Below are positions 1-26,657 of a stretch of DNA of 37,263 nucleotides, one piece after another. A program made the translations under genes and the position numbers. How positions within the stretch are numbered: the stretch's first letter is position 1; every line of letters begins with the position of its first letter. The stretch is from Candidatus Bathyarchaeota archaeon (GTDB lineage Archaea > Thermoproteota > Bathyarchaeia > Bathyarchaeales > Bathycorpusculaceae), in assembly GCA_963811105.1 (NCBI GenBank), contig CAWEPZ010000014.1:1-37263 (forward strand), read 5' to 3'. The notes beneath the pieces were generated by a model. It was not told where the DNA came from, did not search any database, and saw only the letters and a list, made by a program, of their open reading frames with translations.

Positions 1-1
1 G

Positions 2-733
2 AAAGTTGAAGAAGGCACCAGGGAGGACTGGATAAAACTTTGCCGATTCCACTATCGAGGCCACGGCTTCTCAGTGGCAAGAAAATTCTTCCGCGTAAGC
101 AGAAACGGAGAACTCTGCGGCATCATCATCTACTCTTACCCGCCTCCAGCATGCTACGGCAGACGAATGGTTCTGCCCATCATGTCCATGACGGAAATAA
201 ACCAGCAACTAAGCACAATCAACCGGGTTGTTATTCACCCAAAATACCGAACCATAGGTCTAGGAGCTAAGCTGATTCGGGAAAGCCTGCCGCTTGTCGG
301 AACACCGTATGTGGAGCTGATCGCAGTGATGGCAAAATATAATCCCTTTGCAGAGAAGGCAGGCATGCAAAAAATCACTCAACAAACCATGGTCGAGAGC
401 GTAGCCAAAGTTTCTAAAGCCCTGCAGAACTTAGGCTTCACAATGCAACTCCTGGGCAGCACCCACTACGTAGAATCCAAGCTTCAAAACCTAAGTAGCG
501 AAGAAATGATTTGCCTAAAAGAAGCATTTATCAGAAATGCCCATCCGAGGTTCAAAAAAGTCTTCTCCGGGAAAGGCCAGCCGTACGGGAAAGGATCCGC
601 CTATCTGCAGCACATCCAGGATGCGGACCTAACAAAAATGGCCAAACTGATAAAGATCACCAGCATGCTCCTGCAAACGAAAGTTTACCTATTTTGGTCC
701 CGCTATTCAAGCACCATACTGGCTCAAAGTTAG
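2..733 (+). CDS. 5'-partial GNAT-type acetyltransferase domain, probably the C-terminal half of an ABC-ATPase/acetyltransferase fusion (COG2401-like)
   Basis: The frame is open from base 2 (KVEEGTREDWIKLCRFHYRGH...). It contains the FHYR motif and the acetyl-CoA-binding motif RVVIHPKYRTIGLGAKL, plus MAKYNPFAEKAGM. Confidence 0.75.
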   Translation, partial: KVEEGTREDWIKLCRFHYRGHGFSVARKFFRVSRNGELCGIIIYSYPPPACYGRRMVLPIMSMTEINQQLSTINRVVIHPKYRTIGLGAKLIRESLPLVGTPYVELIAVMAKYNPFAEKAGMQKITQQTMVESVAKVSKALQNLGFTMQLLGSTHYVESKLQNLSSEEMICLKEAFIRNAHPRFKKVFSGKGQPYGKGSAYLQHIQDADLTKMAKLIKITSMLLQTKVYLFWSRYSSTILAQS

Positions 734-1486
734 ACTCGACAGCACCTCTGTTTCTGGAAGATGCGTTAAATTGGTGCTAGGGCTCAACGTTTTTTAGTGA
801 TTGAAAATGTTGATGGAAAAACTTGGAAAAAAGAACTTTAGATTTTTAGAAAAAGAAGTAATAGAATTTTTTGACGATATGAGAAAAGATAAGTATTTGG
901 GAAAACCAGATATAGAAATTTCAGAAATTCTAAGGTTCAATATGTTCATTAACTTTCCTGCGTGTTTCAACGTTAGCCTAGTTAATGATCTTTCTTAATT
1001 TTTTTTTAGAATTTTTGTGGTAATTGAGGCTTGATCAAATGATTCCTCTACGAGAACAGAAAAGGAATGGAGCAATCAACCATCAATACGAGCTGTATTT
1101 ACAGAAGAAAGCTATATGCGTTTTCTATTCTGTTTGCGGGAACTCCCAAAGCGGCCTTTGTCTCCATGGCGGCACCGGCAGCGGAACGAAAAAAGCGCAG
1201 AGAGGGATTTCTTCATCCCGTCGAATGTCCGTCGCTTGATCGCTCTGAGAAAATTATCGCTAGTTTAAAGAATGTTACGGCTTTGGTCTTTAGCTGATTA
1301 TGACCGCTAGTATGCTGCTGCAGTGAGGGTTCGCCTTTTCTGGCCTGACAGCGAAAAGTAAATTTTAAAGTTCATATATGAAGTCTTCACTTTCACTATC
1401 CTCTCTCCACTGTACTAAATAGTTGTTTGGGGAGTTGGTTTTTAAGGGTTTTTAGCGCACATGTGGGTTACTGAGAGGTTTAGGAA

Positions 1487-1663
1487 ATGGATAGTGAGAG
1501 TTATCGTCATGGATTTGAAGCTGCTCTTGAACTTTGTGTCGCAGAAATACGTCAGTGCGAAAACAAGGAGCAGTACTTAGAAAAGATAGGTGAGTTTTTA
1601 GAGTTAATCAAAGAGGATAAGATTGATCGATTGAGAGAAATGATCTGGAACATTAAACGATAG
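1487..1663 (+). CDS. small hypothetical protein (58 aa)
   Basis: Read manually, below the ORF-track cutoff: MDSESYRHGFEAALELCVAEIRQCENKEQYLEKIGEFLELIKEDKIDRLREMIWNIKR*. A GAGG SD-like motif lies upstream and the composition is helical and protein-like. Confidence 0.6.
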   Translation: MDSESYRHGFEAALELCVAEIRQCENKEQYLEKIGEFLELIKEDKIDRLREMIWNIKR

Positions 1664-1787
1664 TTCTTCTTAATTTTCTCAAATCTTCAACAGTTCTCAA
1701 GATGCAAACCCACAATAGAAGATTAATCCAAAATATGAATTTCAGTTTCAGAGGTTTTTAATTCGCTCCCTTGTATACCAACTGAGC

Positions 1788-2276
1788 ATGGACATCGCAG
1801 TATTCGCCGTCATATTCTTATTTAATCCGTTATTCTGGATCGTTGTTATATATGTTTTAGTAAAAATATTCAGGACAAACAATAGCACATTCCCGCGGCT
1901 AAATACGCCCTCGTATGGTATTCAATCGATTACTGATAATGGCGAAGTGGTCAGGAGTTTTTCTGAAAGGCGAATTGCCAATTATTTCAAAAAGAATAAT
2001 GTAAGGTACGTTTATGAGAAAAGCGCTGATCATGTAATAAGAAACCCAGATTTCTATCTGCTGGATTATGATGTTTATGTTGAGTTTTGGGGTTTGTTGA
2101 ATGCGGACGACTCATTAACTAGAGAGAATTACGAACGAAATATGAGACGAAAAATGGCAATTTATCACAAAAGAAGCAAGCGACTAGTTTCCATTTATCC
2201 GAAAAACTTGGAAAACTTGGATTGGATTTTCAGAAAAAGATTCAAGAAAGCAACTGGGTTCGATCTCCCAAACTAA
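1788..2276 (+). CDS. membrane-anchored PD-(D/E)XK-type nuclease domain protein (resembles the nuclease domain appended to helicase IV/UvrD proteins)
   Basis: N-terminal hydrophobic helix followed by GEVVRSFSERRIANY..Y.YE..PDFYL....VYVEFWG. Confidence 0.7.
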   Translation: MDIAVFAVIFLFNPLFWIVVIYVLVKIFRTNNSTFPRLNTPSYGIQSITDNGEVVRSFSERRIANYFKKNNVRYVYEKSADHVIRNPDFYLLDYDVYVEFWGLLNADDSLTRENYERNMRRKMAIYHKRSKRLVSIYPKNLENLDWIFRKRFKKATGFDLPN

Positions 2277-2294
2277 AAAAGACTTAGAGAGAAG

Positions 2295-2508
2295 TTTTTG
2301 TGTTTTGTGTTGTGTGTTGTTTTGTCGTGCTGTTTTGTTGAGGTTGTGGGTGCTTAGGGGTTAGTAGTATAGTAAGAGAAAGAGTAGTCGTTTAGTTAGG
2401 AGTTAGCAGAGAGAGAAAATTAAAGTTTAATCCAACCAACATAACTACTAACTACACCTATCCATATCTACCTACATACATATACATACAACACAGTACA
2501 CACGCACA
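2295..2508. repeat. site A: palindromic core ATTAAAGTTTAAT (2419-2431) with G/T-rich left tract and C/A-rich right tract
   Basis: The sequence reads ...gttagtagtatagt...gagagagaaaATTAAAGTTTAATccaaccaacataactactaactac...catacatatacatac. Strand skew flips at the core. Confidence 0.8.
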
Positions 2509-2696
2509 ATGAGTGCTTGGTATTTGGGTTTGTTTGATAGGCAATCTGTTCGGAGTCTTCTTTTAGCTTCTTGGTCTGGTGGGGGGAGTTTTTCGTATTC
2601 TGCAAGCTTTTCAATTGGGCGCAAGAAGTGATCGAATGTTTCTTCGTTAACTTTTTGGATGACTATGGAGCTCTCTTTTTTGTTCATGGCAGTCAT
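2472..2696 (-). pseudogene. 3'-truncated GNAT N-acetyltransferase (SSAT/diamine-acetyltransferase-like N-terminus)
   Basis: IEKLAEYEKLPPPDQEAKRRL...KPKYQAL matches the N-terminus of SSAT-like GNATs. The reading frame runs into the low-complexity tract at about 2510 (VRVYCVVCICM*) and lacks the acetyl-CoA motif. Confidence 0.65.
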
Positions 2697-2744
2697 TTGG
2701 TTGTTTACGGGTTATAAAGTTATTCAGCCTGCTGGCACTTGGTT

Positions 2745-2764
2745 GCAAAAAAAGAAAGAGAGGA
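2745..2764 (-). terminator. oligo-pyrimidine/T-tract terminator of the beta-propeller gene
   Basis: The minus strand reads TCCTCTCTTTCTTTTTTT just after the stop at 2778. Confidence 0.5.
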
Positions 2765-2777
2765 TTTGTGCGGGATT

Positions 2778-5153
2778 TTATTTCTTTCTAAGCAACAAAA
2801 CTGTTGCTATGGCTATTGCAATAATTATGGCGATTGCTGCCACGGCTGTGTATGTCATTAGGTCTGTTGTTGTTGCCAATGTTAATAGTGCCCCTGTTGA
2901 GGTTGGTGTAGCGGTTGCTTGGGTTAACGTTGCGTAGGTTGTGGCTTTAGAGCTGCCGTATGAGTCGTCGCCTGCGAAGGTTGCGGTTATTTTGTATGGT
3001 CCGGGGATTGTCGGTGTCCAGGTGTAGCCGTAGGTGCCGCTTGTTCCGTCAGTTGTTACTATTGCTATGTGTACGTTGTTTCCGTTAGGATCGATTGCGT
3101 CTATCGATACTGGGACTCCGGTTATGGTGGTGTCTGGGGGTATTTGTTTTTGCATGTGGAGATATTCCATCCAAGTTGTCATTGAAGTGTTGGATACGCA
3201 TGGGGTGTTTGGTTGTCCTGGTGATTGGTCCATGACTGTGCCTGTTATGACTGCGCCTTGTCCCATTGTTACAGTTGTACTGGGTGCGGAGATTGTGCTG
3301 GCGGTTTGGCCTTTGCTAAAGCAGTAAAGCATTCCATCGTATGCGTTTGCTTCTACTAGGTAATTGTCGGCTATTATGGGTACGTTTGCTGTGCCTCCAC
3401 CGCCTCCATCCCCTGGTATTTGGCAAGAGATGTTCCATATTTCTGTTCCTGTCATTGCGTCTATGCAACTTAGCTTTCCGCCTCTATAGAGAGGGGTTGG
3501 TGGGGTGTGCAGGCTCATGGATATGTAGAGTTTTCCATCTGCTATGGCTGCCGGGTGATCGTAGGGCCATGTGTTATAGGGGGTTTCGCCGTTGGAGTTC
3601 CCTTGGTTATATATCCATTTTATATGTCCCGTGTTGGCGTCATAGCAGTAAACGCCATTGTAGGCAAATCCGTAGAAGTTGCCATATGCTGCGGCTGAAC
3701 TGTAGGCCCATCCAAAGCCATAGGGGTATTGTGGTGCGTCGCTGGTCCACACCTTCTTTCCTGTGTCAAGATCAAAGCAGTCGAAGTATCCGTTGTCATT
3801 TACGGCGATTACCTTTCCGTAGGCGGCAGAAGTTGTGCTAGTGCTGTAGCATCTTCCGGTCATAGATGTATTCCAAAGGAGTGCTCCTGTGACTAAGTCA
3901 GCTCCTCCGACCCATCCGTTGAGGATGTAGTTGGGGTCTCTGTTTACGAATACTCCTACTTGGCGGCCTGAGGCTGATGTGCCAATGCATGTTAAACCTG
4001 AGAACGGCCAGGATACGTTGTAGAGAATTGAATTAGCTAAAGTGTATGAACCGGTTGAGATAAGGCCTAATGTGGTGTTTGCGGTGTTGCCTGGGCTCCA
4101 ACAGAGTAAAGTGTATGTGGTTCCGTTAGCGTAGATTGAGTATGCCCATGGCGAAATTAGTTGTGTCGCTGTCAAGAATCCGCTTTGATTTAGCATTATA
4201 TTTCCGTATAGTGCGTTGTATTCTATGAGATTTGTACCGATTGACATCGGGATCATGGTTGGCCTGATTTCTTCTAGGCTGCCTGCTTCGGGACGTGACA
4301 TTGCATACATGAGGGCAGTTACGCTGCCGGGCGCTGTCCAGAGTAGTTTTCCTGTCGCCATGTCAATGCATCGCAGACCATCCGGGGCGTTCATGTAGCC
4401 TAGGCCTTGGCTGATGTAGGAGATGCCTTGAGTGTTTATGTATTCTTGTCCGTAGTTGGAGTCACTACCATAGCCTCCTTGGATTCCACTAATGGTGGTT
4501 CTCATACTCCATAGAACGTGGGCTGTGTTTGGTGCTTTGCTCCAGGGATTGAAGTTTATTTTAGAGGCGTTGTAGCTTCCTATGGGCCAGTCACCTGCGA
4601 CCGAGTACCATTCTCTGTTTTCGCTGTTGATTGGGTAGGTCCAATAGTCTGTTGGAAGCGGAGATAATGGCCAGCCTGCTAGGGGTTCTTGCGTTACCGT
4701 GAACGTTGTTACTGGGCTTGTGGCTGGTGGCCAGATGTTACCTGTTACGTTTGCTCCCGAGAAGTAGAATACCGCTGTCCAGTTTCCCACTTGATCGGGT
4801 ATGTAGTTGAACCACATGGTTGCGTCGGGGTATATCGCTCCCGATGATTGCCATACGTACGTGGTCTTATCAGGTTTTGTTAGAGTCACCGTATAGTTTC
4901 CTAGGTATCCGTATTGTGAGTTTGTTATTTTGCTAGTGCTTGGTGTTACCCATGCGTTAACTAGCAGTGTTTGACCTACGCCTATTTTGGGGTAGGGACT
5001 AACGCTCAGGTAGGCTAGTGTGTGCATTGTGACCCCTGTGACTTGTCCGTCAACAGCTGGTAGTTTTGGTAATACTGGGAGGGCTATCATCATTAGAAGA
5101 AGTGTCAGTAACGTTATGAATTTCGTTTCCTTTCTATAAATTTTCGTTTGCAT
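2778..5153 (-). CDS. secreted, C-terminally membrane-anchored PQQ-like beta-propeller surface protein (791 aa)
   Basis: Signal peptide, repeated D..TG...W blade motifs, conserved PLPTDYWT.PI..ENREW block, C-terminal Ig-like domain, Thr-rich linker, TM helix and LRKK tail. Confidence 0.85.
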   Translation of the reverse strand: MQTKIYRKETKFITLLTLLLMMIALPVLPKLPAVDGQVTGVTMHTLAYLSVSPYPKIGVGQTLLVNAWVTPSTSKITNSQYGYLGNYTVTLTKPDKTTYVWQSSGAIYPDATMWFNYIPDQVGNWTAVFYFSGANVTGNIWPPATSPVTTFTVTQEPLAGWPLSPLPTDYWTYPINSENREWYSVAGDWPIGSYNASKINFNPWSKAPNTAHVLWSMRTTISGIQGGYGSDSNYGQEYINTQGISYISQGLGYMNAPDGLRCIDMATGKLLWTAPGSVTALMYAMSRPEAGSLEEIRPTMIPMSIGTNLIEYNALYGNIMLNQSGFLTATQLISPWAYSIYANGTTYTLLCWSPGNTANTTLGLISTGSYTLANSILYNVSWPFSGLTCIGTSASGRQVGVFVNRDPNYILNGWVGGADLVTGALLWNTSMTGRCYSTSTTSAAYGKVIAVNDNGYFDCFDLDTGKKVWTSDAPQYPYGFGWAYSSAAAYGNFYGFAYNGVYCYDANTGHIKWIYNQGNSNGETPYNTWPYDHPAAIADGKLYISMSLHTPPTPLYRGGKLSCIDAMTGTEIWNISCQIPGDGGGGGTANVPIIADNYLVEANAYDGMLYCFSKGQTASTISAPSTTVTMGQGAVITGTVMDQSPGQPNTPCVSNTSMTTWMEYLHMQKQIPPDTTITGVPVSIDAIDPNGNNVHIAIVTTDGTSGTYGYTWTPTIPGPYKITATFAGDDSYGSSKATTYATLTQATATPTSTGALLTLATTTDLMTYTAVAAIAIIIAIAIATVLLLRKK

Positions 5154-5170
5154 TTTCTCCTGTAGACTTT

Positions 5171-5287
5171 AGAGAAAAGGCTTATGCGAAGAAAGCGCCT
5201 TCGCTCTCAGCGCGAAGCACTTTGCTCAGCAAATAGATAAGTTTGTAGCTACTTATAAGACTAAGTGGAAAGGTCTCACTGACAACA
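5171..5287 (-). promoter_or_regulatory. promoter and structured 5' leader of beta-propeller gene 1
   Basis: TATA-like CTTATAAG (5252-5259), upstream TGTTGTCAGT box and leader hairpin at 5192-5223. The layout is shared with the paralog at 11093-11201. Confidence 0.6.
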
Positions 5288-5441
5288 GAGAGCCAATCCA
5301 TTTTTCGCTCTTATTTTTCTGGAGTTCAAGGCTGGTTGCAGCAGTCTCTCGAGCAGTTACCAAATTAAACAGTAGAAGAAACCGTTGAAGACTCAACCTT
5401 CTTGGGTTTTAGCAAATATATTTTCACATAACTAAGATATT

Positions 5442-5561
5442 GACAGAGAGAGACAGACATTAGGCACGCGTACGCGTGCGTGAGTGCGAGTACGTGCTTA
5501 AGTGAGTACGTAGTCGTAGACGTACGTTCGTTCGAGAGAGAGAAAGATTAAAATTTAATCT
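5442..5561. repeat. site B: 4-nt-periodic tract ending in perfect palindrome AGATTAAA-A-TTTAATCT (5545-5561)
   Basis: The sequence reads gcacgcgtacgcgtgc...gagtacgtagtcgtagacgtacgttcgttcgagagagagaaAGATTAAAATTTAATCTat. Confidence 0.8.
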
Positions 5562-5685
5562 ATGTGTTTCAACGATGCTTCGATGACCTGCAAGAACAGA
5601 CAGGGAAGGCAGGTTATTTAGTTCTCAACGCATTGCGACACACAAGTATCAATCAAGCATGTGCGAAGTTTTTGGTCTCAGTATT

Positions 5686-5856
5686 TCATTGGAGTTCTGT
5701 TCCACACATAGGACAATCCTTTGCCTTCTTGTTTCCTTTAATTATCATTCCTAAATTGCAATTGTAACAGAGACGTATATGGCATTCTTTGCAGCAGAAG
5801 GTTGCTCCAACTCTGCCACATGCATCACACGTTTTCCACCAACACTCGTTACACAA
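5686..5856 (-). pseudogene. small Cys-rich zinc-finger ORF (56 aa), probably the remnant of a longer gene
   Basis: Manual translation from TTG: MCNECWWKTCDACGRVGATFCCKECHIRLCYNCNLGMIIKGNKKAKDCPMCGTELQ*. It has five CxxC pairs and an in-frame stop three codons upstream. Confidence 0.6.
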
Positions 5857-6043
5857 TAAAGGTCAGACTTTCAACATGTATAAGCGAAGTCGCTAAGACT
5901 ACAACGTGGAAACCACGCTTATAGACAGTATCAACTACTTGATAGCACTATTTTCAGCAGGATAATTTCCTTTAACCATCAATAGTAACAAAAATATGAG
6001 ACAAAAGATAATGTTTGCTCTTTTAGACACATAACTAATGCAG

Positions 6044-6170
6044 AATTAAATCTTAATCCAACCAAATAAATTGACTAACTATCTAACTAACCTACTATCT
6101 AACTAACAACTAACTAACCAACTAACTAACTACATAATTAACTACATAATAACTACGTAACTAAATATAG
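6044..6170. repeat. site C: core AATTAAATCTTAATC followed by CCAACCAA and an (ACTA)n-like tract
   Basis: The sequence reads gAATTAAATCTTAATCcaaccaaataaattgactaactatctaactaacctactatctaactaac... The tract ends about 50 bp from the integrase stop codon. Confidence 0.8.
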
Positions 6171-6220
6171 ATATGCATTAATTCTTTGACATATAGGTTA
6201 ACTTTTGACGTTTCGAGTGG

Positions 6221-7498
6221 TCATTTGCGTTGTCTAAACAGCTTTTTACCATCAATTTCTGTGATATATTCGAAACCAACTTCAAGAAGTTGGCAGGCTT
6301 CCTCCAGCGTTGCTGCAACCTTAACATTGTATTCGTTGGAAGCCAAGTTGAACGCCATTTTTTCCATGTTAATGTAGATTTCCGTAGTCATCGTATGCTT
6401 ATGTCCTAGCATTTGAGCAACGTGGTGGATGTCGCGTGTTTTGTGATACAGTAGGGTAGCGTACCAGTGACGGATTAGGTGATAGTGGATTTTTGCGATT
6501 CTGGGATTATTTAGCCTCTTAGCAATTCGTTTCCTCTGGTTAATTAGGCAAGTTGTTGCGCTGCCCTTGTTCATTTTTCCGAAGATCTTGTCGCTTTCTT
6601 TAGGGAGGCTGTTGAGCATTCCTATTAGTGTGGTCGATACGTTGAAGACTCTTGGTGAGCTGCGTTTTTCAGCATGCGTCAATGTTATGATTCGCATGTC
6701 AGCGTTAACGCAAATCCAGGTCAATCTTAGACATTCTCCGAGCCGCACACCAGTTTCTTTCATTAATTGCAGTAGCGCACTTGTCCTTTTTCCGCAGCCA
6801 GCAATAAGTTGATCAAGCTCAATTTCAGTAGGTAGAAATTCAGGCAGTTTTTCAACGAAGCCGTATTTTGGCGGTTTCCACGTTTTTCCAAGAAAACTCA
6901 GGAATCTTGTGTAGGCGCAACTATAGAGAAATTTCGTGTTTTCGGTTATAGTCATTTTTGCAAGGGCTTCTTTTACGCTTTCTGGATCAGTGATTAAGGG
7001 AGTGTATCTTGATATGCTTCTTATTGCTGTTGTGAAAGTGCGAGCAGTGATTTGCTTTAAGCCTTCTTTTTTGCAGTAAAATTCGAATTGCAGTAGTTTA
7101 CCTTTAATGTCTGCTTCAGTTGTTTTCTCCATTCCCGCAACGGTTTTTATTTCTGCTGCAGGATCCAAATTTTTCGCCTCAAATGCGCATATTTGGCGAT
7201 TAAAAAGTAACTTTGATGGGTTATTTATTGACCATTTATGATTTTCTTGTAGCGGTTTTTCCGAGAATCTATACCCGCAATCTCTGCAGAGCCAAAGTTG
7301 CATAGGCTCGTTGCCTTTTGGATAGTATAAGCCATCTTTGTAGAGCCGTTTTGATGAGCATTCAGGGCATTCCAAATTTGACTGTTTGGGGGGTTGGTGC
7401 AAGTGGCTTGCTTCATTTTCAGCCAACTTCCCGTTTGAATCTTGCTTTAAGCCAAATATGCCTGAGGCATTATTTTGGAAGCCAACCTTTCCCCCCAA
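6221..7498 (-). CDS. tyrosine recombinase/integrase with N-terminal Zn-ribbon (Int1)
   Basis: CPEC...CRDC Zn ribbon. Catalytic R (ETGVRLGE), K (AEK), HxxR (HLIRH), LGH and Y (TEIY). GGTGA SD lies before the TTG start. Confidence 0.92.
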   Translation of the reverse strand: MGGKVGFQNNASGIFGLKQDSNGKLAENEASHLHQPPKQSNLECPECSSKRLYKDGLYYPKGNEPMQLWLCRDCGYRFSEKPLQENHKWSINNPSKLLFNRQICAFEAKNLDPAAEIKTVAGMEKTTEADIKGKLLQFEFYCKKEGLKQITARTFTTAIRSISRYTPLITDPESVKEALAKMTITENTKFLYSCAYTRFLSFLGKTWKPPKYGFVEKLPEFLPTEIELDQLIAGCGKRTSALLQLMKETGVRLGECLRLTWICVNADMRIITLTHAEKRSSPRVFNVSTTLIGMLNSLPKESDKIFGKMNKGSATTCLINQRKRIAKRLNNPRIAKIHYHLIRHWYATLLYHKTRDIHHVAQMLGHKHTMTTEIYINMEKMAFNLASNEYNVKVAATLEEACQLLEVGFEYITEIDGKKLFRQRK

Positions 7499-7572
7499 TT
7501 CAACTCACCTTTGTTTCTTTTTTAGTACCGGTTTTCTCGACCGCCTCATAGATTGCTACAAAGATACCCAAT

Positions 7573-7821
7573 TCAGCGATAAAATGCAAAGCAAGTATAG
7601 ACCAAACGTTCCAAACGATAGATAAGAAATTCATACGATTGCTCAAGGATGGCTTTTTCCTCGTCTGTTAATCTGTTTAAAAGATGTTTAGCCTCCTCGT
7701 TCTGCTGATCAGGACTTTTCCCACCGTCTACTATGGCTTGTGCATCATTTTTGACCGCTGCTCTTATTTTCTGTGCGCGGTCATGCAGTTGCTGTTCGTC
7801 TGGGTCACCTACGTGGAGCAA
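7573..7821 (-). CDS. hypothetical protein in the integrase operon, possibly degraded
   Basis: Co-oriented between the 104-aa ORF and Int1. The frame stays open upstream to about 7900 without a canonical start. Confidence 0.5.
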   Translation of the reverse strand: MLHVGDPDEQQLHDRAQKIRAAVKNDAQAIVDGGKSPDQQNEEAKHLLNRLTDEEKAILEQSYEFLIYRLERLVYTCFAFYR

Positions 7822-7895
7822 TATGTCATCGTCCTCTGGCGGAAAGTCTAAAACATTGCTCTCTAGCTCGTGAAGTTTACGGCTTAAGACATTCG

Positions 7896-8210
7896 TTAGA
7901 ATCCTCTCCTATCCTTTTTGATGTCGTCTTGCGGTTTCGGAATCAGTATGCTGTTCTTGAGCTTCTCTTCTAACTCAATCACCCTTAGCTCCATTTCCTC
8001 GTCCTTGAGTATGCCGCCATAAGTTGAAACTGCGGAAACCAATATTTTTGCCCAACCCTGCTTTGCTTTGTCGCTGTTTCCCTCCGAGTGAATTTTTCGA
8101 TGAGAGAGGCTTAAAACGCCGTCTAAAACGCGAAATAAGGTGTTTCTGCGGTCTTTAGCTGAGCGGTTTGATGATGGTTTCTTGACGGTTTCTGTTTCAG
8201 GTTCACCCAA
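7896..8210 (-). CDS. hypothetical helical protein typical of archaeal mobile elements (104 aa)
   Basis: First gene of the apparent operon, with a KQGWAKIL...ELRVIELEEKLK coiled-coil pattern. A TATA-like CTTTAAAT lies on the minus strand at 8314-8321. Confidence 0.65.
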   Translation of the reverse strand: MGEPETETVKKPSSNRSAKDRRNTLFRVLDGVLSLSHRKIHSEGNSDKAKQGWAKILVSAVSTYGGILKDEEMELRVIELEEKLKNSILIPKPQDDIKKDRRGF

Positions 8211-8249
8211 CTTAAATGCCTGCTAACCTTGACTCCAACACCTGGAGGA

Positions 8250-8321
8250 AAGACAACAAAGCAAGTTACCACTCAAGACAACACAAAACAAGACAACAAT
8301 CGCTATATCAATCATTTAAAG
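8250..8321 (-). promoter_or_regulatory. putative promoter of the Int1 operon with three 9-bp direct repeats
   Basis: AAGACAACA occurs at 8250, 8275 and 8290, downstream (on the minus strand) of the TATA-like element at 8314-8321. Confidence 0.5.
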
Positions 8322-8413
8322 GTAAAAAACTTGTGCAGACTTACTGAAATCAAAAGCGGCGCTTAAATAAATAAATTAAAAAAAGGAAGGAATTGGGTTT
8401 TTAGTTTCTTGGT

Positions 8414-11065
8414 TTACGCTCGTTTTCTAAGAACAAGGAAGCCTACTATTGCGATTGCAATGATGATGGCGATAGCTGATATTGCGACGGCAGAGATTAC
8501 TGGCATGTTGTCTGTTTGTAGTGCTGCTGTGGAAGGTGATGGACTGGCTGATGTTCCAGCACCAACTGAAACGGCGGTTGCTGCAGATGAACTTCCGTAA
8601 GAATTGTCTCCAGCGAAAGAAGCTACGATTTTATAATCACCCACTGTTGATGGAGTCCATGTCTTACTGAACGTCCCATAGTAAGCGTCTGAACTCACTG
8701 TCCCTATGTCTATCGAGTTACCGTTTGGATCGAGCGCGGTTAAAGTAACTGGAACACCTGTCATTGTAACATTATGGTCAAGGCCATCGATAGGATGCTG
8801 CATATACAAGAACTCCATTTGTGTTTCCATTGAATCATCTGATACACATGGTACTGTGCCTTGTTTGCTACTAGAGTCAAGTGGTGCGGTTGGGTTATTG
8901 AAGCTGCCCTGATCGCCCGGAGACATGTCCATAACTGTACCGGAAATGATAACACTGTTTCCGCTGGTGATTTGTGTTTGTGGCACTGATACTGTGGTGG
9001 CGCTCTTGCCTTTGCCGAAGACATACATGTACCCGTCATAACTGCTGGCTGCTGTAAGATAGCCATCTGCAATTGCACCGGGAGCCATGCTTCCCGTGAT
9101 GTTCCACATGTCCTGTCCTGTGGTTATGTTGATGCAGTAGATCTTCCATCCTCTGGTTATTGGCTGGCTAGGCGAGTGCTCAGTGTTGTAAGCGTAGAGC
9201 ATTCCGTCACCAATGGTACTAGTACCAGTAAACCACGGATAATTATCTTGGTATGGTGTTTCAAAAGAGTATGGCGCTTTTGCTTGGAATAACCAAGACA
9301 CTTTTCCTGTGCTCCAGTTGTAAGCTGCTATTCCGTCATATTGATTCGCGATTATATTGCCGCCGTATGACTGTACGCCGTAGCACCCGAATGTTCCCCA
9401 AGGCCAGGTTGTCAAGGGACTTTTCCATAGGAACGTCCCTGAGGACAAGTCCCAACAGCGCCAATACCCGTCATCAAAGCGTACGGCGAATTTACCGTGG
9501 TCAGCGACTGCTGTACTTCCGCTGAAGAGAGGAAAACCGACGCCTGCCGTGAAATTCCATAGGAGCCGCCCTGTGGTCAAACTAGCCGCTTCTAAGCCAA
9601 TATCCTGGGCTACTCCGCTAGCACTAGGCGGCGTTATGCTATATGTAGTAACAGATATGCCTGATTCGTAATCTGTTGATGCCGGTAAGCTGCTGAACGG
9701 CCAAGTAATGTTGTTCATTACTGTGAAAGTGTAATTGGTCAAACCAACTATGCTCCCGGGTCTTACTCCCGTAACGGTCCAGTTAATCAAACGATAATCA
9801 GGGTTAGCACTAGTGCCAATGTTTTGCACGGTCAAGAAGTACGGGTCCATATAGCATGTGCCAGTAGTCAATGGAGCGATTGAAATATTAATATTCGCGC
9901 CAGTGACTGGGTCAGTTTTCATGTTGCCAGTATATGGGTCATACACTATATACCTGCCGCTGCCGACGTAGACGAGTACAGGCGTACCTCCAATATTAGG
10001 TGCTGCGCCAGGTACCTCGCCAAACGCTTGTTGACTATATGAAACAATTGTTGGTATTTGGGTGTTGCCCGTCTGGTCCCAGTACACTTGTCCGGTGCGC
10101 AGGTTATAACACTCCCACACGCTCTGTGGGACGCCGTTTATCGCTTTGTTAAGAGTCTGATAGCACCTTCCGTCATAGACTAATGTTGGAGTCCCGGAGT
10201 TTCCCGATATAGCCCTTATTCCGCTTGTTCCTCCGATTAGCCCTCCTTCCGCTCCCTGTCGTCTCCATACCACATGTGCTGTCGTTGGTCCTAAGACATA
10301 AGGCGTGTATCTATAGTTGCTCATGTAGGTATTCGTGTCAGCTGGCCAGCCAGTGCCCCCTCCAACAATACCCGTTCCTGGATAGCTTCCTATAATCGGC
10401 CACCACTCCCTATTTTCTGGGGATATTGGTCGAGTCCAGTAGTCGGTTGGAAGCGGGGATGGAGGCCAAGACATCACTGGTTGCTCCTGCACTGTAAAGT
10501 TGTATGGTCCGTCATGGCTGGGCTTATAGTACAACGATTGCGTAAAGCTGAAGGGTCCAGCACCTATAAGAGAGAATGGGTCGCCAGTATAGTTTCCAGC
10601 AGGGAAGTATCCGCCTAGAAAGTCAAACTTGATTTGCCATGTGCCAACCTCGTCGGGATAATAGTTGAACCATGCCGTGGTGTCTGCCTCATAAGAATTC
10701 ACCACTTTCGTGTCAGTTGTTCCGTCTGGCTTAGTGAATGTTACCGTGTAATCGCTCAGGTATCGACTACCATGAGTTGGTGGATGCAGCCACACGTTAA
10801 CCAGTAGGGGCTGGCCAACGCCTATGGGGTTAGGTGTAAAGCTTAGGGCGGCGAGAGTGTCAAGAGTCACATCAGGAGTAACGCCGGCTGGAAGTGGTAT
10901 CGAACCACTACTTTGTACGTGTGTGGGAGTCACGCCTGCAGGAAGCGTCGTTTGAGCTTTAACTGGTTGAGTAAACATTGCCATTGGCAAAACCGAAGCC
11001 ATCATTAGAACTATAATGATTAAAGCAAAAGATTTCGTTTTCATCGTTTTTATTGGATTTTTCAT
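8414..11065 (-). CDS. secreted, membrane-anchored PQQ-like beta-propeller surface protein (883 aa), paralog of 2778..5153
   Basis: Signal peptide, the same conserved blocks (IGVGQ.LLVN.W, PLPTDYWT.PI..ENREW, YDG..Y.F.KG, FAGD.SYGSS), TM helix and LRKRA tail. Confidence 0.85.
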   Translation of the reverse strand: MKNPIKTMKTKSFALIIIVLMMASVLPMAMFTQPVKAQTTLPAGVTPTHVQSSGSIPLPAGVTPDVTLDTLAALSFTPNPIGVGQPLLVNVWLHPPTHGSRYLSDYTVTFTKPDGTTDTKVVNSYEADTTAWFNYYPDEVGTWQIKFDFLGGYFPAGNYTGDPFSLIGAGPFSFTQSLYYKPSHDGPYNFTVQEQPVMSWPPSPLPTDYWTRPISPENREWWPIIGSYPGTGIVGGGTGWPADTNTYMSNYRYTPYVLGPTTAHVVWRRQGAEGGLIGGTSGIRAISGNSGTPTLVYDGRCYQTLNKAINGVPQSVWECYNLRTGQVYWDQTGNTQIPTIVSYSQQAFGEVPGAAPNIGGTPVLVYVGSGRYIVYDPYTGNMKTDPVTGANINISIAPLTTGTCYMDPYFLTVQNIGTSANPDYRLINWTVTGVRPGSIVGLTNYTFTVMNNITWPFSSLPASTDYESGISVTTYSITPPSASGVAQDIGLEAASLTTGRLLWNFTAGVGFPLFSGSTAVADHGKFAVRFDDGYWRCWDLSSGTFLWKSPLTTWPWGTFGCYGVQSYGGNIIANQYDGIAAYNWSTGKVSWLFQAKAPYSFETPYQDNYPWFTGTSTIGDGMLYAYNTEHSPSQPITRGWKIYCINITTGQDMWNITGSMAPGAIADGYLTAASSYDGYMYVFGKGKSATTVSVPQTQITSGNSVIISGTVMDMSPGDQGSFNNPTAPLDSSSKQGTVPCVSDDSMETQMEFLYMQHPIDGLDHNVTMTGVPVTLTALDPNGNSIDIGTVSSDAYYGTFSKTWTPSTVGDYKIVASFAGDNSYGSSSAATAVSVGAGTSASPSPSTAALQTDNMPVISAVAISAIAIIIAIAIVGFLVLRKRA

Positions 11066-11092
11066 TTTTCTTTTTCTCTTTCCTTATTTTTA

Positions 11093-11201
11093 AGAGAAAG
11101 TACTTATTAGAAAAGCAATTTATTTTTGAGATAAGCGCTTTCCCTAGAAACAATTAGTAAATAACTTGCTTATAAAAGAATGCAGGTGGCTACTGACGAC
11201 A
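11093..11201 (-). promoter_or_regulatory. promoter and structured 5' leader of beta-propeller gene 2
   Basis: TATA TTTATAAG (11169-11176), upstream TGTCGTCAGT box and leader hairpin at 11108-11146. Confidence 0.6.
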
Positions 11202-11701
11202 ATGAGACAACCATGCACAAACTAAAAGTCTATTTTTCACATTTTTACAAATTATAATAGTTTTCATCATATTCGTAGGAACAATTATTGCATGTTAGTG
11301 AAATTGGGGAATGCCTCTAAAACCTTTGATAGGTATTTATCAATGTGGTATTAGTGTGATGTTAAGAAAGAAAAAAGGGACTAAGCGCGGAAATGGAGAC
11401 GTCGCCACTGGAAGGCTTAATATACATACACATCCATATCTGACCATACATAGGGACATGCCTAGTTGAATGAGTATTGTTTTTGCTTGCTTCAATAGCT
11501 ACGAACTATTTTTTTATAATTTGTAACATAAGTAGTACTGCTCGCAGGAACGATAGCGAGTAGAATAAACAAAATTTTAATTAAAAATATACTAGATTTA
11601 CTTAAACCATGGACCATTTGTAACAAGTAACGTAAAAAGATTCGCTTATCGGTAAATTAAATAATTTCCCCTGTATAATCAAGATAGCGGAGAATTGAGG
11701 C

Positions 11702-11986
11702 ATGCAAAATCCAAAATTAACTGAAATTGAGACCAAGTATGAAAAATGTATCATTAGAGTTGTAGATTTCCAAAATCTGACAAACGTTGTAGTTGTCAGC
11801 CTAGACAAGTTTGAAAAAATTATCGAAGGCGGTCATCATGAAGTATTTGAGGTCAAAACCGCTCCAACAGCAAAGTTTGCCATGTTTGATTACTGCGAAA
11901 TGGGGATAACCATTACAACTGAGAACATACAAATTCAGGTATCAGACCCACCGAAAAACGTGTCTATCTCTGCTAAAGCTCATTAA
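11702..11986 (+). CDS. hypothetical protein (94 aa)
   Basis: ATG with GAGG upstream and plausible globular composition. No recognised motif. Confidence 0.5.
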   Translation: MQNPKLTEIETKYEKCIIRVVDFQNLTNVVVVSLDKFEKIIEGGHHEVFEVKTAPTAKFAMFDYCEMGITITTENIQIQVSDPPKNVSISAKAH

Positions 11987-12215
11987 GTTAGTTTTATCTT
12001 TTCCTCGGAATATTAAGAAATAAGTGAATGCCCTACTTAATTTTTTTCTACTCTTACAGCCAAAAAAGGGCTTAACAACATAGTAGGATTAATTAAACTA
12101 CACTATATCAGAAAACACACCGGGTTCAAAACTTATAGGAAACAATTCTCGCTTTGCCAACTTCAACAGTCCATTTTTCTGAACTGAAACCACCCTTGAT
12201 ATTAGAGAGTTATCA

Positions 12216-12248
12216 GTTGTTGGTTGGTTGGACTAAATTTTAATCTAT
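12216..12248. repeat. site D: core GACTAAATTTTAATC (12231-12245) with TTGG repeats on the left, inverted relative to sites A and C
   Basis: The reverse complement reads ATAGATTAAAATTTAGTCCAACCAACCAACAAC. Confidence 0.75.
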
Positions 12249-12620
12249 TTTTCCAACTTTCAGTATTTTTGGTCCTCGAAAGTATGTTTCTGGTTTCTGT
12301 TCCTCACTGTCAAGCAGTATTTGGTCGTTTTCGCGCCATTTTAAATCGTCAGCGAGTTCTTTTGGGATGGTTATTATTAGGCTATTTCCTGCTTTTCTTA
12401 ATTTGACGATTTTCTTCATTTAGCTTGACCTCAAGTTGTAGGTGACTTTATGCGTTTGTTTTGAATGCGTGTGTTTTGGGCATGTTTTTAAACAGTATTT
12501 TGTATTTTTATATATAGTTAGGTGTTGTCCAGTATAATCAGGTATATACAGATAACTGTGCGTAATGGTTAAATGAGCCTTGCCCCGTATATGAGGATTT
12601 CGTAGAGCGAGGATGAGAAT

Positions 12621-12902
12621 TTGGAAAAAGCACTAGACCCCAAAAAAAAGGGTGTTGAGATACATTTTGTTGATATGCTTAAGGCTAAGGGTTACTTGCA
12701 GCTGCTGGATCCGCTTTGGGGTCATTGCTTAATTATTGGTCGAGAAGAGTTTACAGACAAAATGGCACTGTGTCTTAGAATCGAAGGCATAAGATACCAT
12801 TTCACCTTGCTAGATAATTATGGCGCCGTCTTCCTGGAACTAGAGCAGCCTTCCGTTCCAGAGCATAAGATACAATTAGCGTGTCTGGAGGTTAACTATT
12901 AG
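12621..12902 (+). CDS. hypothetical protein translationally coupled to Int2
   Basis: The TAG stop overlaps the integrase GTG start. SD-like GAGGATGA lies upstream. Confidence 0.55.
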   Translation: MEKALDPKKKGVEIHFVDMLKAKGYLQLLDPLWGHCLIIGREEFTDKMALCLRIEGIRYHFTLLDNYGAVFLELEQPSVPEHKIQLACLEVNY

Positions 12903-14239
12903 TGGCTCAGGGGGAGCGAACAGGCGGCCTTGCCAACTTTCCGTCTCCTATAAGCATATTTGACAATCAGCCGGGAAATAATATCACTGGCAAGTCAGTT
13001 TCAGTTCTAACTGCCGGCACCGCCACGCAAATCCCCAACTGCCCCAAATGCGGCAACCGAAAAGTTTGGCGGGATGGAATTCGCACTCAAATGTTTGGCT
13101 TGCCTATCCAACGTTGGCTTTGTCGCCGGTGCGGCTTTAGATTTAGTGATCCTGAAGATGTCGCAAGGGCAAAAGATGAGTTTGAACAAGTTCAAACAAT
13201 TGAATCAAAGAGCATAAAAAGCGCATCTGACTACTCTACTAATTGCCAAATATGCGTCGACAACGTTAAGGAGACGAAAAAATTGGCTGCGGAAAAACAA
13301 ATAACATCAACAATTCCGCAGATAAATCAAGTGGACGACCCAAAAAGTGCCATCGTAGACTTCCTCTGGCAACTCAAACGCAAAAACTACTCCGAAGACA
13401 CGATAAAACCCTATGGCTACAACCTAAACGCGATAGTCAAACTAGGCATAAATCTTTATGACCCCCAAAGCTTCATCGACAAAATGACTGAACTCGGCGA
13501 TACGAAAACTAACATCCGAAAACTCAACCTCAGAAAAGCATACAAAAGCTTTCTCAACTACCATAAAATCCAAGCCGATATACCACGCTATCCATACAAA
13601 AGACCCATACCTTATGTACCACATGAAAGATTCCTCGATCAACTAATCGATAGCTGCCAAAGCATTCAGATGATGGTTTTCTTAATGACATTAAAAGAAA
13701 CAGCCGCAAGACCTGGAGAAGCCTTTCAACTCATGTGGAACGACATAGACCCCGTCAACAAAACCATAAACATCTCACATCCAGAAAAAGGCAGCAACCC
13801 ACGGATATTGCCAATATCTGACAATCTTCTTAAGAAACTACTCGAACTACCCCACATCAGAGCCAACTATATATTCAACTACAAAAACAAAAAGAACCTC
13901 AGCAATAGCTTCAGGACAATGCGAGATCACGCAATTCGAAAGTTCAGCAATCCAGAGTTACGAAAAATAGACTTCTACACTTTCAGGTATTGGAGAGCCA
14001 CCGAAGAATACGACCGAAGCCATAAAGATTTTGAAGCCGTCATGTACCTACTCGGACATAATTCACTAAGATACGTTTTACTCTACAAGCAACTAAGCAA
14101 AGTACGCCATTTCGGTCGAGGCGAAGCATACATCGTTAGAGAAGCTAAAACCAAGAAGGACTGCATGGCTTTGATGGCAGATGGATTTGAACACCATATG
14201 GACAAAGGAGGAGCTAGCCTTTTCAGAAAGCTTAAATAA
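12902..14239 (+). CDS. tyrosine recombinase/integrase with N-terminal Zn-ribbon (Int2)
   Basis: CPKC...CRRC Zn ribbon. Catalytic R (ETAARPGE), K (PEKGS), YxxR variant (YTFR), LGH and Y (VLLY). GGAGG SD. The gene ends 83 bp before tRNA-Asp. Confidence 0.92.
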   Translation: MAQGERTGGLANFPSPISIFDNQPGNNITGKSVSVLTAGTATQIPNCPKCGNRKVWRDGIRTQMFGLPIQRWLCRRCGFRFSDPEDVARAKDEFEQVQTIESKSIKSASDYSTNCQICVDNVKETKKLAAEKQITSTIPQINQVDDPKSAIVDFLWQLKRKNYSEDTIKPYGYNLNAIVKLGINLYDPQSFIDKMTELGDTKTNIRKLNLRKAYKSFLNYHKIQADIPRYPYKRPIPYVPHERFLDQLIDSCQSIQMMVFLMTLKETAARPGEAFQLMWNDIDPVNKTINISHPEKGSNPRILPISDNLLKKLLELPHIRANYIFNYKNKKNLSNSFRTMRDHAIRKFSNPELRKIDFYTFRYWRATEEYDRSHKDFEAVMYLLGHNSLRYVLLYKQLSKVRHFGRGEAYIVREAKTKKDCMALMADGFEHHMDKGGASLFRKLK

Positions 14240-14322
14240 GGATTGCTCTTCTTTGGTTCAAACCGAACTGAGGAGAAAAAACATCTCCAAAAGTTGGTCT
14301 AGCATACTAAAAGTCCATAAGT

Positions 14323-14400
14323 GCCCAGGTAGTATAGTTCGGTCCAGTATATGCGGCTGTCGCCCGCAGGACCCGGGTCCGAATCCCGGCCTGGGCGCCA
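14323..14400 (+). tRNA. tRNA-Asp(GTC), CCA encoded, no intron
   Basis: Acceptor stem GCCCAGG/CCTGGGC with G73 and CCA. Anticodon arm TGCGG-CTGTCGC-CCGCA. T arm CCGGG-TCCGAAT-CCCGG. Confidence 0.95.
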
Positions 14401-14538
14401 TATTAATTCCAATTTACATGATAGATCTGCTTTAACAAATTCTTGATAATGAAACGGAGATTTATTTTTCTCATTAAAGCAGTCTTAAGAGGAAAGGCTT
14501 AATAGTTGTAGAGCTAAATTTTTGTTAAGGCGAATAGT

Positions 14539-14820
14539 TTGAGCCTTTCACGAATGGAGAAATATCTCGCCATAATCAAAGTTTTAGACAACTGGGATTC
14601 AATAACACAAGAACAAATAATGCATAAGGCCGAAGTCAAACTTGTTCCCCAAAAAGAAGCGCTCAACTTTCTAGTCAAGTTAGACTTGCTTGAAGAAAAA
14701 AAAGTTGGAACTAAAACAGTATATTCAATTACTTTTAAAGGACAAAGATTAAGCATATATTTTAGACTAAATGACGATAGTGCAATATTTGGCGGAACCA
14801 AAATAACTCGAATTGATTAA
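14539..14820 (+). CDS. archaeal winged-helix transcriptional regulator (HTH_45/ArnR1-like)
   Basis: SRME.Y..I..L...T..IM.KA...L.FL...L.....Y.IT.KG wHTH pattern. Confidence 0.75.
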   Translation: MSLSRMEKYLAIIKVLDNWDSITQEQIMHKAEVKLVPQKEALNFLVKLDLLEEKKVGTKTVYSITFKGQRLSIYFRLNDDSAIFGGTKITRID

Positions 14821-14875
14821 CCTGAATTCTCTATTGATATGTTATTATAGAGCTTGAGACCCATCCAATACATCG

Positions 14876-15883
14876 GTGCATTGTTTGCCAAGATTAATTG
14901 ATCCTTTGAAAGTGAAGGGCTACACCTTAAGAAACCGCATAGTTTTGCCGCCTATGCAGACGGGTAGAGCAACTTTTGAAGGAGCCGTAACTAACAGGCT
15001 GATTAACTTCTACGTTCGCCGCTCCTCAGCTTTAGGTTTGCCTATTGTGGAGCACGCCTATGTCTCGCCAACTGGAAAGATAGGTCCAAAACAGTTGGGA
15101 ATCTACGATAACTCCTTAGTTGAGGGTTTTGAAAAATTAGCGGAGAGTCTACATACAGTTGGTGCCCCCGCGATTGTGCAGATTTCACACGCTGGCGGAG
15201 CAGCAAACAAGAAAGTTATCGGAACTGAACCTGCAGGCCCTTCCGCTAGACCAAAAACACGCATGTTAGAAGTAAGTGAAATGGAAACTATCGCAGATGA
15301 TTTTGCTTTGGCTACTAAGCGGGCGGTTAAAGCTGGGTTTGACGGGGTTGAACTTCATGGAGCACACGGTTACTTGCTTAACCAGTTCTATTCACCCTTA
15401 CTAAACAAACGCCACGACGAGTATGGCGGTAGTTTAGAAAATCGGATACGGTTCCCTTTGCAAGTTGTTAGAAAGGTGCGTCAACGCCTCAACGATAAAC
15501 TTTTGCTATATAGGTTAGGTTCGGATGATTTAGCCCCCAGCGGAACTCACATAGAAGACTCTGCGATATTTGCCAAGACGCTTGAACAGGCTGGAGTGGA
15601 CATAATTGACGTTTCTGGAGGCATGTGTGGAAGCGAACCAAAACAGTTACGACAAGTCAAAGGCTACTTTGTCCCACAAGCAAACGAAATCAAGAAAGCT
15701 GTAAACGTTCCAGTTATCGGCGTAGGAGGAATAACCGACGCTGAATTCGCTGATAAACTGATAGTTGATGGAAAAGTTGACTTAGTGGCAGTGGGAAGAG
15801 CATTTTGGCGAGATAATAAATGGGCAGAAAAAGCCACAGAAAAACTAGCATTCAAATTTATCCAAAAAATCAACGTCCCATAA
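14876..15883 (+). CDS. NADH:flavin oxidoreductase (Old Yellow Enzyme family)
   Basis: NRIVLPPM, QISHAG, AGFDGVELHGAHGYLLNQF.SP..N.R.DEYGGSLENR.RF and VAVGRA motifs. Confidence 0.92.
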   Translation: MHCLPRLIDPLKVKGYTLRNRIVLPPMQTGRATFEGAVTNRLINFYVRRSSALGLPIVEHAYVSPTGKIGPKQLGIYDNSLVEGFEKLAESLHTVGAPAIVQISHAGGAANKKVIGTEPAGPSARPKTRMLEVSEMETIADDFALATKRAVKAGFDGVELHGAHGYLLNQFYSPLLNKRHDEYGGSLENRIRFPLQVVRKVRQRLNDKLLLYRLGSDDLAPSGTHIEDSAIFAKTLEQAGVDIIDVSGGMCGSEPKQLRQVKGYFVPQANEIKKAVNVPVIGVGGITDAEFADKLIVDGKVDLVAVGRAFWRDNKWAEKATEKLAFKFIQKINVP

Positions 15884-17630: not shown

Positions 17631-17712
17631 TCGGCTATTCTCGATTTTAGCTCATATATTCAAATCAAATATATATTGGTTTGAGAAGAAAAGAAGAGCG
17701 AGAATCAGCAAC

Positions 17713-26655: not shown

Positions 26656-26657
26656 TT

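Follow-up and report, generated by a model that had tools for sequence, protein, structure and literature searches.

Contig CAWEPZ010000014.1 of Candidatus Bathyarchaeota archaeon (assembly GCA_963811105.1) carries several copies of a 15-bp palindromic sequence, four of which (cores A to D) lie among surface-protein and tyrosine integrase genes. These cores are probably the 15-bp target duplications of Cas1-driven, casposon-like transposons that stack gene modules in this archaeal genus. The window analyzed here is the entire contig of 37,263 bp (C14), part of a 3.49 Mb genome that is assembled in 15 contigs and is 96.65% complete. Throughout, G numbers denote genomes of the genus (G000 being this genome), C numbers denote contigs and L numbers denote extracted loci.

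A search of the window with the pattern RAYTAAANYTTAATC, allowing at most one mismatch, gave nine matches at five places, some of them on both strands. Dinucleotide shuffles (n = 100) gave a mean of 0.28 matches, and nine matches were reached in 0 of the 100. The positions and sequences that a first-pass annotation had assigned to cores A to D were confirmed, and a fifth core that it had not listed was found in the right part of the window (Table 1). The annotation had described the flanks of the cores as shared and mixed, and the flank comparison agrees: core A has GAGAGAGAA on its left and CAACCAAC on its right, core B has GAGAGAGAAA and TATGTG, core C has a left arm of another kind and CAACCAA, and core D has TTGGTTGGTTG and TATTTTT. 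Other details needed correction. The cores had all been called intergenic, but core D is not strictly so, as it overlaps the final codons and the stop codon of a 59-aa MazE/AbrB-like open reading frame (ORF). Core C had been placed at the 3' end of the integrase gene Int1 and lies 163 bp beyond its stop codon. The gene truncation reported at core B was not upheld, as ORF 5552-5698 matches only itself in the genome and has no Pfam match below an E-value of 0.1; an integrase remnant at this core was likewise ruled out, the 49-aa frame being without any match. A G content of 10% or less was found in 15 of 78 arms, compared with 6.8% of controls. This strand skew is real and moderate, and we attribute it to G-free element termini. 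A hand count revealed no correlation between arm orientation and the base at the centre of the core.

An insert of 6,172 bp lies between cores C and D, because the sequences on either side of it are contiguous around one core at a paralogous locus of the same genome. Specifically, window 5701-6058 and 12234-12580 together correspond to C11:328794-329487, where a single core is present (C11:329137). The two ends of this insert match each other in inverted orientation (10/14 positions ungapped, or approximately 24 nt with gaps). Besides the genes listed in Table 1, it holds a 94-aa ORF; it does not contain Cas1, and its insertion point is the stop codon of the MazE/AbrB-like gene. We read Int1 as cargo of this insert and C-D itself as non-autonomous, and the other units of the window, which also lack Cas1, look non-autonomous as well. 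An all-against-all comparison of flanks in this genome recovered an empty-site relation only for the triad of C, D and C11. When metagenomes were scanned with the MazE/AbrB-like protein, one good relative was found (68% identity), with no core at its stop codon. Two side observations concern the C11 locus. Relative to window 12580-12678, C11:329487-335547 contains approximately 6 kb of extra sequence, which separates the MazE-like module from a truncated Int2-like gene (155 aa), and a further tyrosine recombinase of 480 aa is encoded at C11:336232-337674.

The cores had been proposed to divide the region into the units A-B, B-C and C-D. C-D stands as an insert. The A-B segment has mismatched termini (4/14), and we read it not as a single intact element but as parts of two elements or as one decayed element. 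Cores A and B are read as abutting termini of the C-D type plus a second type: when the right arm of core A was aligned with both ends of C-D, positions 1-7 and a TAACT block were invariant among the three termini, while the stretch left of core A (2290-2417) is read as the right-hand terminus of an element situated further left. The layout in which GAGAGAGAAA adjoins a core was found again downstream of Cas1-like genes or gene remnants in relatives. Reads from four runs (X1, X2, X5 and X9), taken as low-depth contigs and with low-complexity termini excluded, gave one weak joint (2382 to 5532, with 30 foreign letters and a 29-letter side). This joint was considered as an A-B deletion and is best read instead as another G-type terminus.

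Thirty-nine sites in this genome score well on core plus arms. Clustering of 505 ORFs located within 4 kb of sites yielded a small Cas1 cluster. The Cas1 copy of this genome (G000:C2:550389-550976) matches only the C-terminal half of the PF01867 profile (E-value: 9.6e-25); the four catalytic residues are kept, the entire N-terminal domain is gone, and no upstream frame supplies it. As the window has no Cas1 and the genome only this half copy, the link between core and Cas1 rests on the relatives. A search of the genus identified a close Cas1 clade (at least 45% identity, with many fragments) and a distant clade (32-38% identity), whose members have open frames of 320-404 aa. A core lies within 1.5 kb at 12 of 20 close-clade loci and at 0 of 9 distant-clade loci. 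By simple arithmetic, a random 3.3-kb stretch of this genome holds one of its 39 sites in approximately 4% of cases. Among 41 genomes, 13 have both the core and a close Cas1, six have the core without a close Cas1, one has a close Cas1 without the core and 21 have neither (Fisher p = 1.7e-5). In public data, 1,887 relatives of this Cas1 were found with E-values of 1e-10 or below, the best 120 of which are 332-368 aa in length. E162, H227, D239 and E242 are invariant in eight aligned Cas1 proteins.

All three intact Cas1 genes with nearby cores (L231, L232 and L233) lie between two cores, directly inside perfect terminal inverted repeats (TIRs). L231 is 5.3 kb in length, with termini (CCCAAACCCAAACC) that match at 14/14 positions and flanking cores that match at 15/15. 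L232 (8.5 kb, termini beginning A10TAAT) and L233 (10.0 kb, termini of (CA)n type) each have termini matching at 26/26 positions and flanking cores matching at 14/15. The three proteins align over 343-344 aa (343 aa for L233), and those of L231 and L232 match PF01867 in a Pfam scan with E-values of 1.9e-45 and 2.2e-46, respectively. Perfect TIRs together with a 15-bp direct repeat around an intact Cas1 gene point therefore to Cas1-type transposition with target-site duplication rather than to attL/attR exchange. Matched termini are also found on units without Cas1: L146 (522-2906), L152 (2639-5820) and L034 (79-1592) each match at 13/14 positions. Among 49 pairs of adjacent cores, the termini agree at no fewer than 13/14 positions in six pairs and at 14/14 in three, whereas in 20,000 control pairs drawn across sources 0.9% reach 13/14 and 0.14% reach 14/14. 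At the insertion point of L231, the orthologous position in both this genome and G004 is a single unoccupied core-like sequence; the left neighbours differ and the comparison is partial. Of the 18 non-Cas1 ORFs scanned in the intact elements, 17 have no Pfam match and the remaining one is a ClpP. No PolB was seen, in that the three elements contain no ORF longer than approximately 350 aa and the 18 scanned ORFs (five short L232 ORFs were left out) include no Pfam polymerase. No CRISPR-like array was found in or beside the three elements, nor any cas family match among the neighbouring ORFs scanned.

Two further features of these elements were observed. Subterminal tandem repeats containing CTAACTAAC are located approximately 100 bp inside the element ends at window 6064-6145 and at L231:14317-14463, where the unit is 20 bp and is present in 7.3 copies at 100% identity; these repeats may be candidate binding sites for the integrase or for an accessory protein. 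The 5.3-kb element of L231 (G016:C5) lies between inverted paralogous genes (ORFs 7923-9011 on the minus strand and 14588-16219 on the plus strand) with approximately 63% DNA identity.

Several observations weigh against Cas1 as the agent of these junctions. The window contains no Cas1, and the single match in the whole genome is of half length. Eight of the 20 close-clade Cas1 loci have no core within 1.5 kb, six core-positive genomes have no close Cas1, and the Fisher p value given above is optimistic because genomes of one genus are kin rather than independent samples. Two more long Cas1 matches (L234 and L235) carry stop codons; L234 has no site in 18 kb, and L235 lies just outside a core pair with 12/14 termini. 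Only nine of the 49 adjacent pairs reach 10/14. The termini of C-D are imperfect, and its two cores differ at 3/15 positions (12/15 identical). More generally, flanking cores share a mean of 12.9 positions compared with 13.2 for random core pairs, and core identity therefore does not separate duplication from exchange. The sites at C, D and C11 differ at three positions whose partition matches a crossover within TAAAT, and also matches duplication followed by drift; by our estimate such a partition arises by chance about once in eight, and exchange by a tyrosine recombinase is possible for the C-D insert alone.

The distribution of the core within the genus extends the picture obtained from the window. 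The exact 15-mer is present in 19 of the 41 genomes at 0-13 copies each, while a reversed control gives 0-1 copies. In relatives, the core delimits arrays of modules of 0.5-3 kb. For example, in G013 and G038 the sites form arrays with spacings of 0.5-2.4 kb and 0-2 ORFs per interval. These ORFs are functionally unrelated (among them an arylsulfotransferase, a GNAT protein, a radical SAM protein, a Na/Ca exchanger and a PLD nuclease), and 9 of the 20 scanned are of no recognized function. In G042, G003 and G004, a backbone conserved on both sides surrounds segments that are unrelated to one another (1.8, 3.3 and 4.1 kb) and that all begin exactly at a core, and a Cas1 remnant is located at the other edge of this hotspot. 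Comparison of syntenic loci thus reveals cores bounding variable segments within conserved synteny in three species and a single core at the C11 paralog. The earlier description of the cores as junctions of a cassette-like or transposon-like system is borne out by the C-D insert, by these variable segments and by the arrays of modules. Of 30 pairs of neighbouring cores, 22 agree in the central base. PQQ-propeller surface proteins make up the largest gene family near sites (27 of the 505 ORFs).

Some minor observations concern these sites. At L095 and L096 (G042:C7 and G003:C1), 254 bp beside the shared core are 97% identical, compared with approximately 85% for the surrounding backbone, and this flank is a candidate "leader" or recently exchanged stretch. 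Core plus arms also occur in three IMG/VR contigs classed as viral (L140, L141 and L142), and in L142 two cores 609 bp apart surround a single 140-aa ORF.

We consider it likely that a Cas1-family integrase, resembling a casposase and here termed "solo Cas1", uses the core as its target segment and is carried by a transposon family of this Bathyarchaeia genus. By analogy with established casposase biology, the 3'-OH ends of an element would attack both borders of the 15-bp segment on opposite strands, and repair of the gaps would duplicate the segment, such that each insert would end as core, terminal repeat, terminal repeat and core. As the target would be regenerated on both sides, further inserts could land beside the first and build stacks in which cores and modules alternate. 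The interchangeable arms (CCAACCAA and GAGAGAGAAA here; CCCAAACCC, (CA)n and poly-A in relatives) would then be the termini of different elements abutting at a shared core. Because only a truncated Cas1 is left in this genome, its inserts are probably fossils or dependent on an enzyme supplied in trans. A broader proposal, which we offer only tentatively, is that solo-Cas1 transposons without PolB, having a regenerating 15-bp palindromic target and tolerating many G-free ends, load unrelated modules in trans and so produce repeat-insert-repeat stacks across the genome. That tolerance of end types would be the reason why surface proteins, enzymes and integrase-bearing elements alike could be loaded.

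The first-pass annotation had interpreted the cores as att sites of the tyrosine recombinases encoded nearby. Its identification of Int1 and Int2 as members of this family holds (both match PF00589; Table 1), and four cysteines that are invariant in 19 aligned integrase relatives presumably form the Zn ribbon that it had described. In its fuller form, this explanation has Int1 inserting C-D by exchange between attP and attB within a 7-bp overlap (AAAWTTT), with Int1 or Int2 acting in trans on units that lack an integrase. The location of Int1 inside the insert and close to core C is in keeping with this, as are the TAAAT partition among C, D and C11 and the presence of inverted half-sites around a 7-bp centre in the 15-bp core, which is the lambda scheme as described in PMC8371274. 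The central base common to neighbouring cores can be cited for it too, although duplication explains that equally well. The wider family of these integrases does not follow the cores. The predicted enrichment of the core beside the integrases was scanned for, and core plus arms were found at 0 of 29 genus loci around Int1 relatives and at one of 80 such loci (L034) across Bathyarchaeia (1.09 Mb). A tRNA gene lies 28-150 bp past the 3' end in 8 of 13 full-length genus relatives of Int1, an arrangement like that of Int2. In the 41 genomes, presence of the core does not track the integrase family (17/2 against 17/5, p = 0.27). The closest Int1 homologue (L013, 83% DNA identity) shares the gene alone, with no core and no repeats marking an element, and the many-core arrays of G013 are on contigs without any integrase match. 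The core tracks the solo Cas1 clade, and perfect TIRs around Cas1 genes are unexpected under att exchange. We therefore regard the att-site explanation as unlikely, and the enzyme is probably not one of the Zn-ribbon tyrosine integrases.

A different recombinase or transposase might have made the junctions, with Cas1 genes being carried frequently as passengers within those elements. Such an enzyme would accommodate three observations: Cas1 is absent from most inter-core segments, matched termini are absent from most, and many of the core-adjacent Cas1 copies are short fragments. As to what that enzyme could be, the only recurring recombinase or transposase clusters among the 505 ORFs are Cas1 (4 members) and integrase (3 members), the non-Cas1 ORFs of the intact elements offer a ClpP as their sole Pfam match, and a 15-bp duplication combined with TIRs is the known signature of a Cas1 integrase, as described in PMC5137440. 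A passenger role for Cas1 is accordingly quite improbable in our judgement. We give still less credence to the view that the core belongs to the host as a regulatory or structural palindrome between genes (for instance an operator, a promoter, a terminator or an element like a repetitive extragenic palindrome) beside which mobile DNA merely lands. Of 91 sites, 79 have ORFs on both sides, seven are at sequence edges and five are inside ORFs of at least 100 aa, and one core occupies the same backbone position in three species, as a host signal might. The AT-rich core and GAGAGAAA also have what we take to be a resemblance to an archaeal TATA box and a purine-rich upstream element, respectively. 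The flanking genes are tandem at 44 sites, divergent at 22 and convergent at 13, which is near random placement; arm type is unlinked to the direction of the neighbouring gene (35/28, 18/14 and 31/28); and gene distances range from approximately 20 bp to more than 2 kb. Core A lies between convergent genes and core B between genes of the same strand, 393 bp from the next coding start, while in our reading of the sequence TATA-like boxes are much nearer than the cores to the surface-protein start codons. The 15-mer is absent from 22 of the 41 genomes. No significant hairpin is predicted (z = -1.09 for 226 nt around A and +0.35 for 231 nt around C), and no Rfam family matches the core, only tRNA-Asp being found in 1-16000 at E-values up to 1. 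The fixed promoter distance expected of a transcription factor operator was thus not seen. A promoter or operator with GAGAGAAA as upstream element and the core as TATA box was ruled out, there being neither gene polarity nor a fixed distance, and so was a terminator or hairpin, as the folds are no better than those of shuffles and 22 of 79 sites lie between divergent genes.

With Cas1-driven transposition as the preferred reading, the nearest described systems are the casposons as defined by Krupovic et al. 2014, self-synthesizing transposons that encode Cas1 (family 1 of Nitrosopumilus and family 2 of Aciduliprofundum and Methanosarcina), which have been described as rare and large, each with one chromosomal target. 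The A. boonei casposase produces a 15-bp target duplication, its target overlaps a gene 3' end by 5 bp, and it needs an adjacent upstream "leader" (PMC5137440); it favours C-rich termini (PMC8464041). A family-1 casposase of 347 residues without a helix-turn-helix (HTH) domain is described as giving a 13-bp duplication and accepting many end types (PMC8464041); 13 bp is the duplication length published for N. koreensis (PMC5137440, PMC8464041). Similarly, the elements related to those of the window carry a Cas1 with the catalytic E/H/D/(D/E) residues, outside any CRISPR-cas locus in the three cases, although no such gene is in the window itself. They have TIRs (14/14 to 26/26 in the Cas1 elements; for C-D, the weaker match given above) and 15-bp direct repeats (15/15, 14/15 and 14/15, and 12/15 for C-D), and the length of the repeat equals that published for A. 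boonei and exceeds that for N. koreensis. As in casposons, the target overlaps a gene 3' end, and the protein of approximately 344 aa is close in size to the HTH-less family-1 casposase (PMC8464041). Insertion in tandem at a regenerated target and a tyrosine recombinase as cargo also have precedents, as tandem casposons are known and one of them bears a XerC-like recombinase (PMC6563490). There are also differences. PolB, described as a constant component of casposons (PMC5137440, PMC9939771), is missing from the ORFs scanned here; the target, instead of being a single tRNA or ef-2 site, is a palindrome, nearly perfect and AT-rich, that occurs at dozens of positions in each genome; the termini are simple G-free repeats that vary between elements; and many inter-core modules are 0.5-3 kb in length, with one or two genes and no Cas1. 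In sequence, the match to the casposase structure 6opm (E-value: 9e-13) is no closer than that to the CRISPR Cas1 structure 4n06 (E-value: 7.7e-17). The present elements thus share casposon features except PolB, and add a palindromic multi-copy target, G-free termini and many small Cas1-less units. In the literature searched, a scope that did not include supplements (which may list further solo Cas1 elements), no casposon report for Bathyarchaeia or Bathyarchaeota and no casposase without PolB was found.

CRISPR adaptation by Cas1-Cas2 employs the same enzyme family and likewise duplicates a short, partly palindromic repeat on insertion, giving a repeat-insert-repeat order with direct repeats; the central base common to most neighbouring cores is the counterpart here. 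The inserts described here are kilobases of genes, however, where CRISPR spacers measure 30-40 bp; the repeat has a length of 15 bp; neither Cas2 nor Cas4 was among the Pfam families matched by the element ORFs; and no CRISPR array was found in the elements. Integron arrays and the pdif modules of Acinetobacter are comparable in that small, functionally unrelated modules, mostly without a recombinase of their own, are separated by a short site. As the first-pass annotation had stated, the cores resemble neither integron attC hairpins, the folds not being significant, nor tRNA-derived att sites. Furthermore, module orientation is not fixed with respect to the site, no link to an integron-type integrase or to Xer was seen (a search for an integron-type integrase next to the arrays gave no integrase on the G013 array contigs), and the tyrosine recombinases that are present are tRNA-linked. 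Those recombinases do recall lambda-type and archaeal tRNA-targeting elements, both in the position of Int2 at tRNA-Asp and in the eight tRNA-linked relatives of Int1. Conservation of the backbone across the genus begins at tRNA-Asp, and bases 1-14322 are therefore a variable island, at the edge of which Int2 is an ordinary tRNA-linked integrase. Unlike the att sites of such elements, the cores are neither derived from tRNA genes nor linked to this integrase family.

This Cas1 clade appears to move compact elements without PolB, leaving dozens of 15-bp palindromic target copies per genome with small cargo between them. If the broader proposal outlined above is correct, this would be an extant system comparable to the intermediate that has been postulated between casposons and CRISPR arrays, as well as an integron equivalent based on Cas1. 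Confirmation would provide a natural case in which Cas1 alone builds repeat-insert-repeat arrays, bearing on the origin of CRISPR repeats and of adaptation, as well as a compact Cas1 integrase specific for a short, defined target sequence. It would also explain, in part, the hypervariable islands of surface-protein genes in a widespread group of soil and sediment archaea. A more general point is that the integrase gene nearest to a junction need not encode the enzyme that made it.

Table 1. Features of the variable island and the fifth core, in coordinates of the window
Feature	Position	Strand	Description
G-type terminus	2290-2417	+	C-poor low complexity, ends in GAGAGAGAA; 6% C in the 150 nt left of core A
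Core A	2418-2432		AATTAAAGTTTAATC; palindromic, 15 bp, putative target or duplicated segment
C-type terminus	2433-2510	+	CAACCAAC..., G-poor; same terminal-repeat family as both ends of C-D
PQQ beta-propeller surface protein	2778-5153	-	791 aa, putative cargo; PF13360 (E-value: 2.3e-12); C-terminal membrane anchor
G-type terminus	5440-5545	+	Ends in GAGAGAGAGAAA; 78% match, including the core, in another species (G013:C32)
Core B	5546-5560		GATTAAAATTTAATC
Cys-rich ORF	5686-5856	-	56 aa; in left half of host module
Interrupted host module, left half	5701-6043		95.0% identity over 359 bp to C11:328794-329151
Core C	6044-6058		AATTAAATCTTAATC; putative left copy of the 15-bp target duplicated by the 6.2-kb insert
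Left terminal repeat of insert	6059-6170	+	With subterminal CTAACTAAC repeats
Int1	6221-7498	-	Tyrosine recombinase, predicted Zn ribbon; PF00589 (E-value: 6.8e-17); inside insert
Two small ORFs	7573-8210	-	82 and 104 aa; conserved next to remnants of integrase genes in relatives; 68-83% DNA identity to sequences of several genomes; no family match below E 0.01
PQQ beta-propeller surface protein	8414-11065	-	883 aa, putative cargo; PF13360 (E-value: 2.5e-09)
Right terminal repeat of insert	12181-12230	-	...TTGGTTGGTTG
Core D	12231-12245		GACTAAATTTTAATC; putative right copy of the duplicated target
Interrupted host module, right half	12240-12580	-	91.7% identity over 348 bp to C11:329140-329487; holds MazE/AbrB-like ORF
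MazE/AbrB-like ORF	12240-12419	-	59 aa; PF04014 (E-value: 4.2e-08)
Int2	12902-14239	+	Tyrosine recombinase, predicted Zn ribbon; PF00589 (E-value: 9.9e-14)
tRNA-Asp	14323-14400	+	84 bp beyond Int2
Fifth core	34047-34061		GACTAAATTTTAGTC; arms of TTGG type and CCCAAACCC type

Elsewhere in the window, some repeated sequences were noted. A GNAT-like ORF that is open at its 5' end occupies window 1-733 and is cut by the start of the contig; it shares 87-88% DNA identity with C6:28427-29125 and C7:11868-12565, and the contig start is probably a repeat. Window 25448-31810, 16332-19583 and 33271-33808 are paralogous to the start of C11 (85% identity over 6.4 kb, 73.5% over 3.3 kb and 83.5%, respectively). 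Internal tandem repeats of 140-430 bp are located at window 24468-25744 and 36314-36706.

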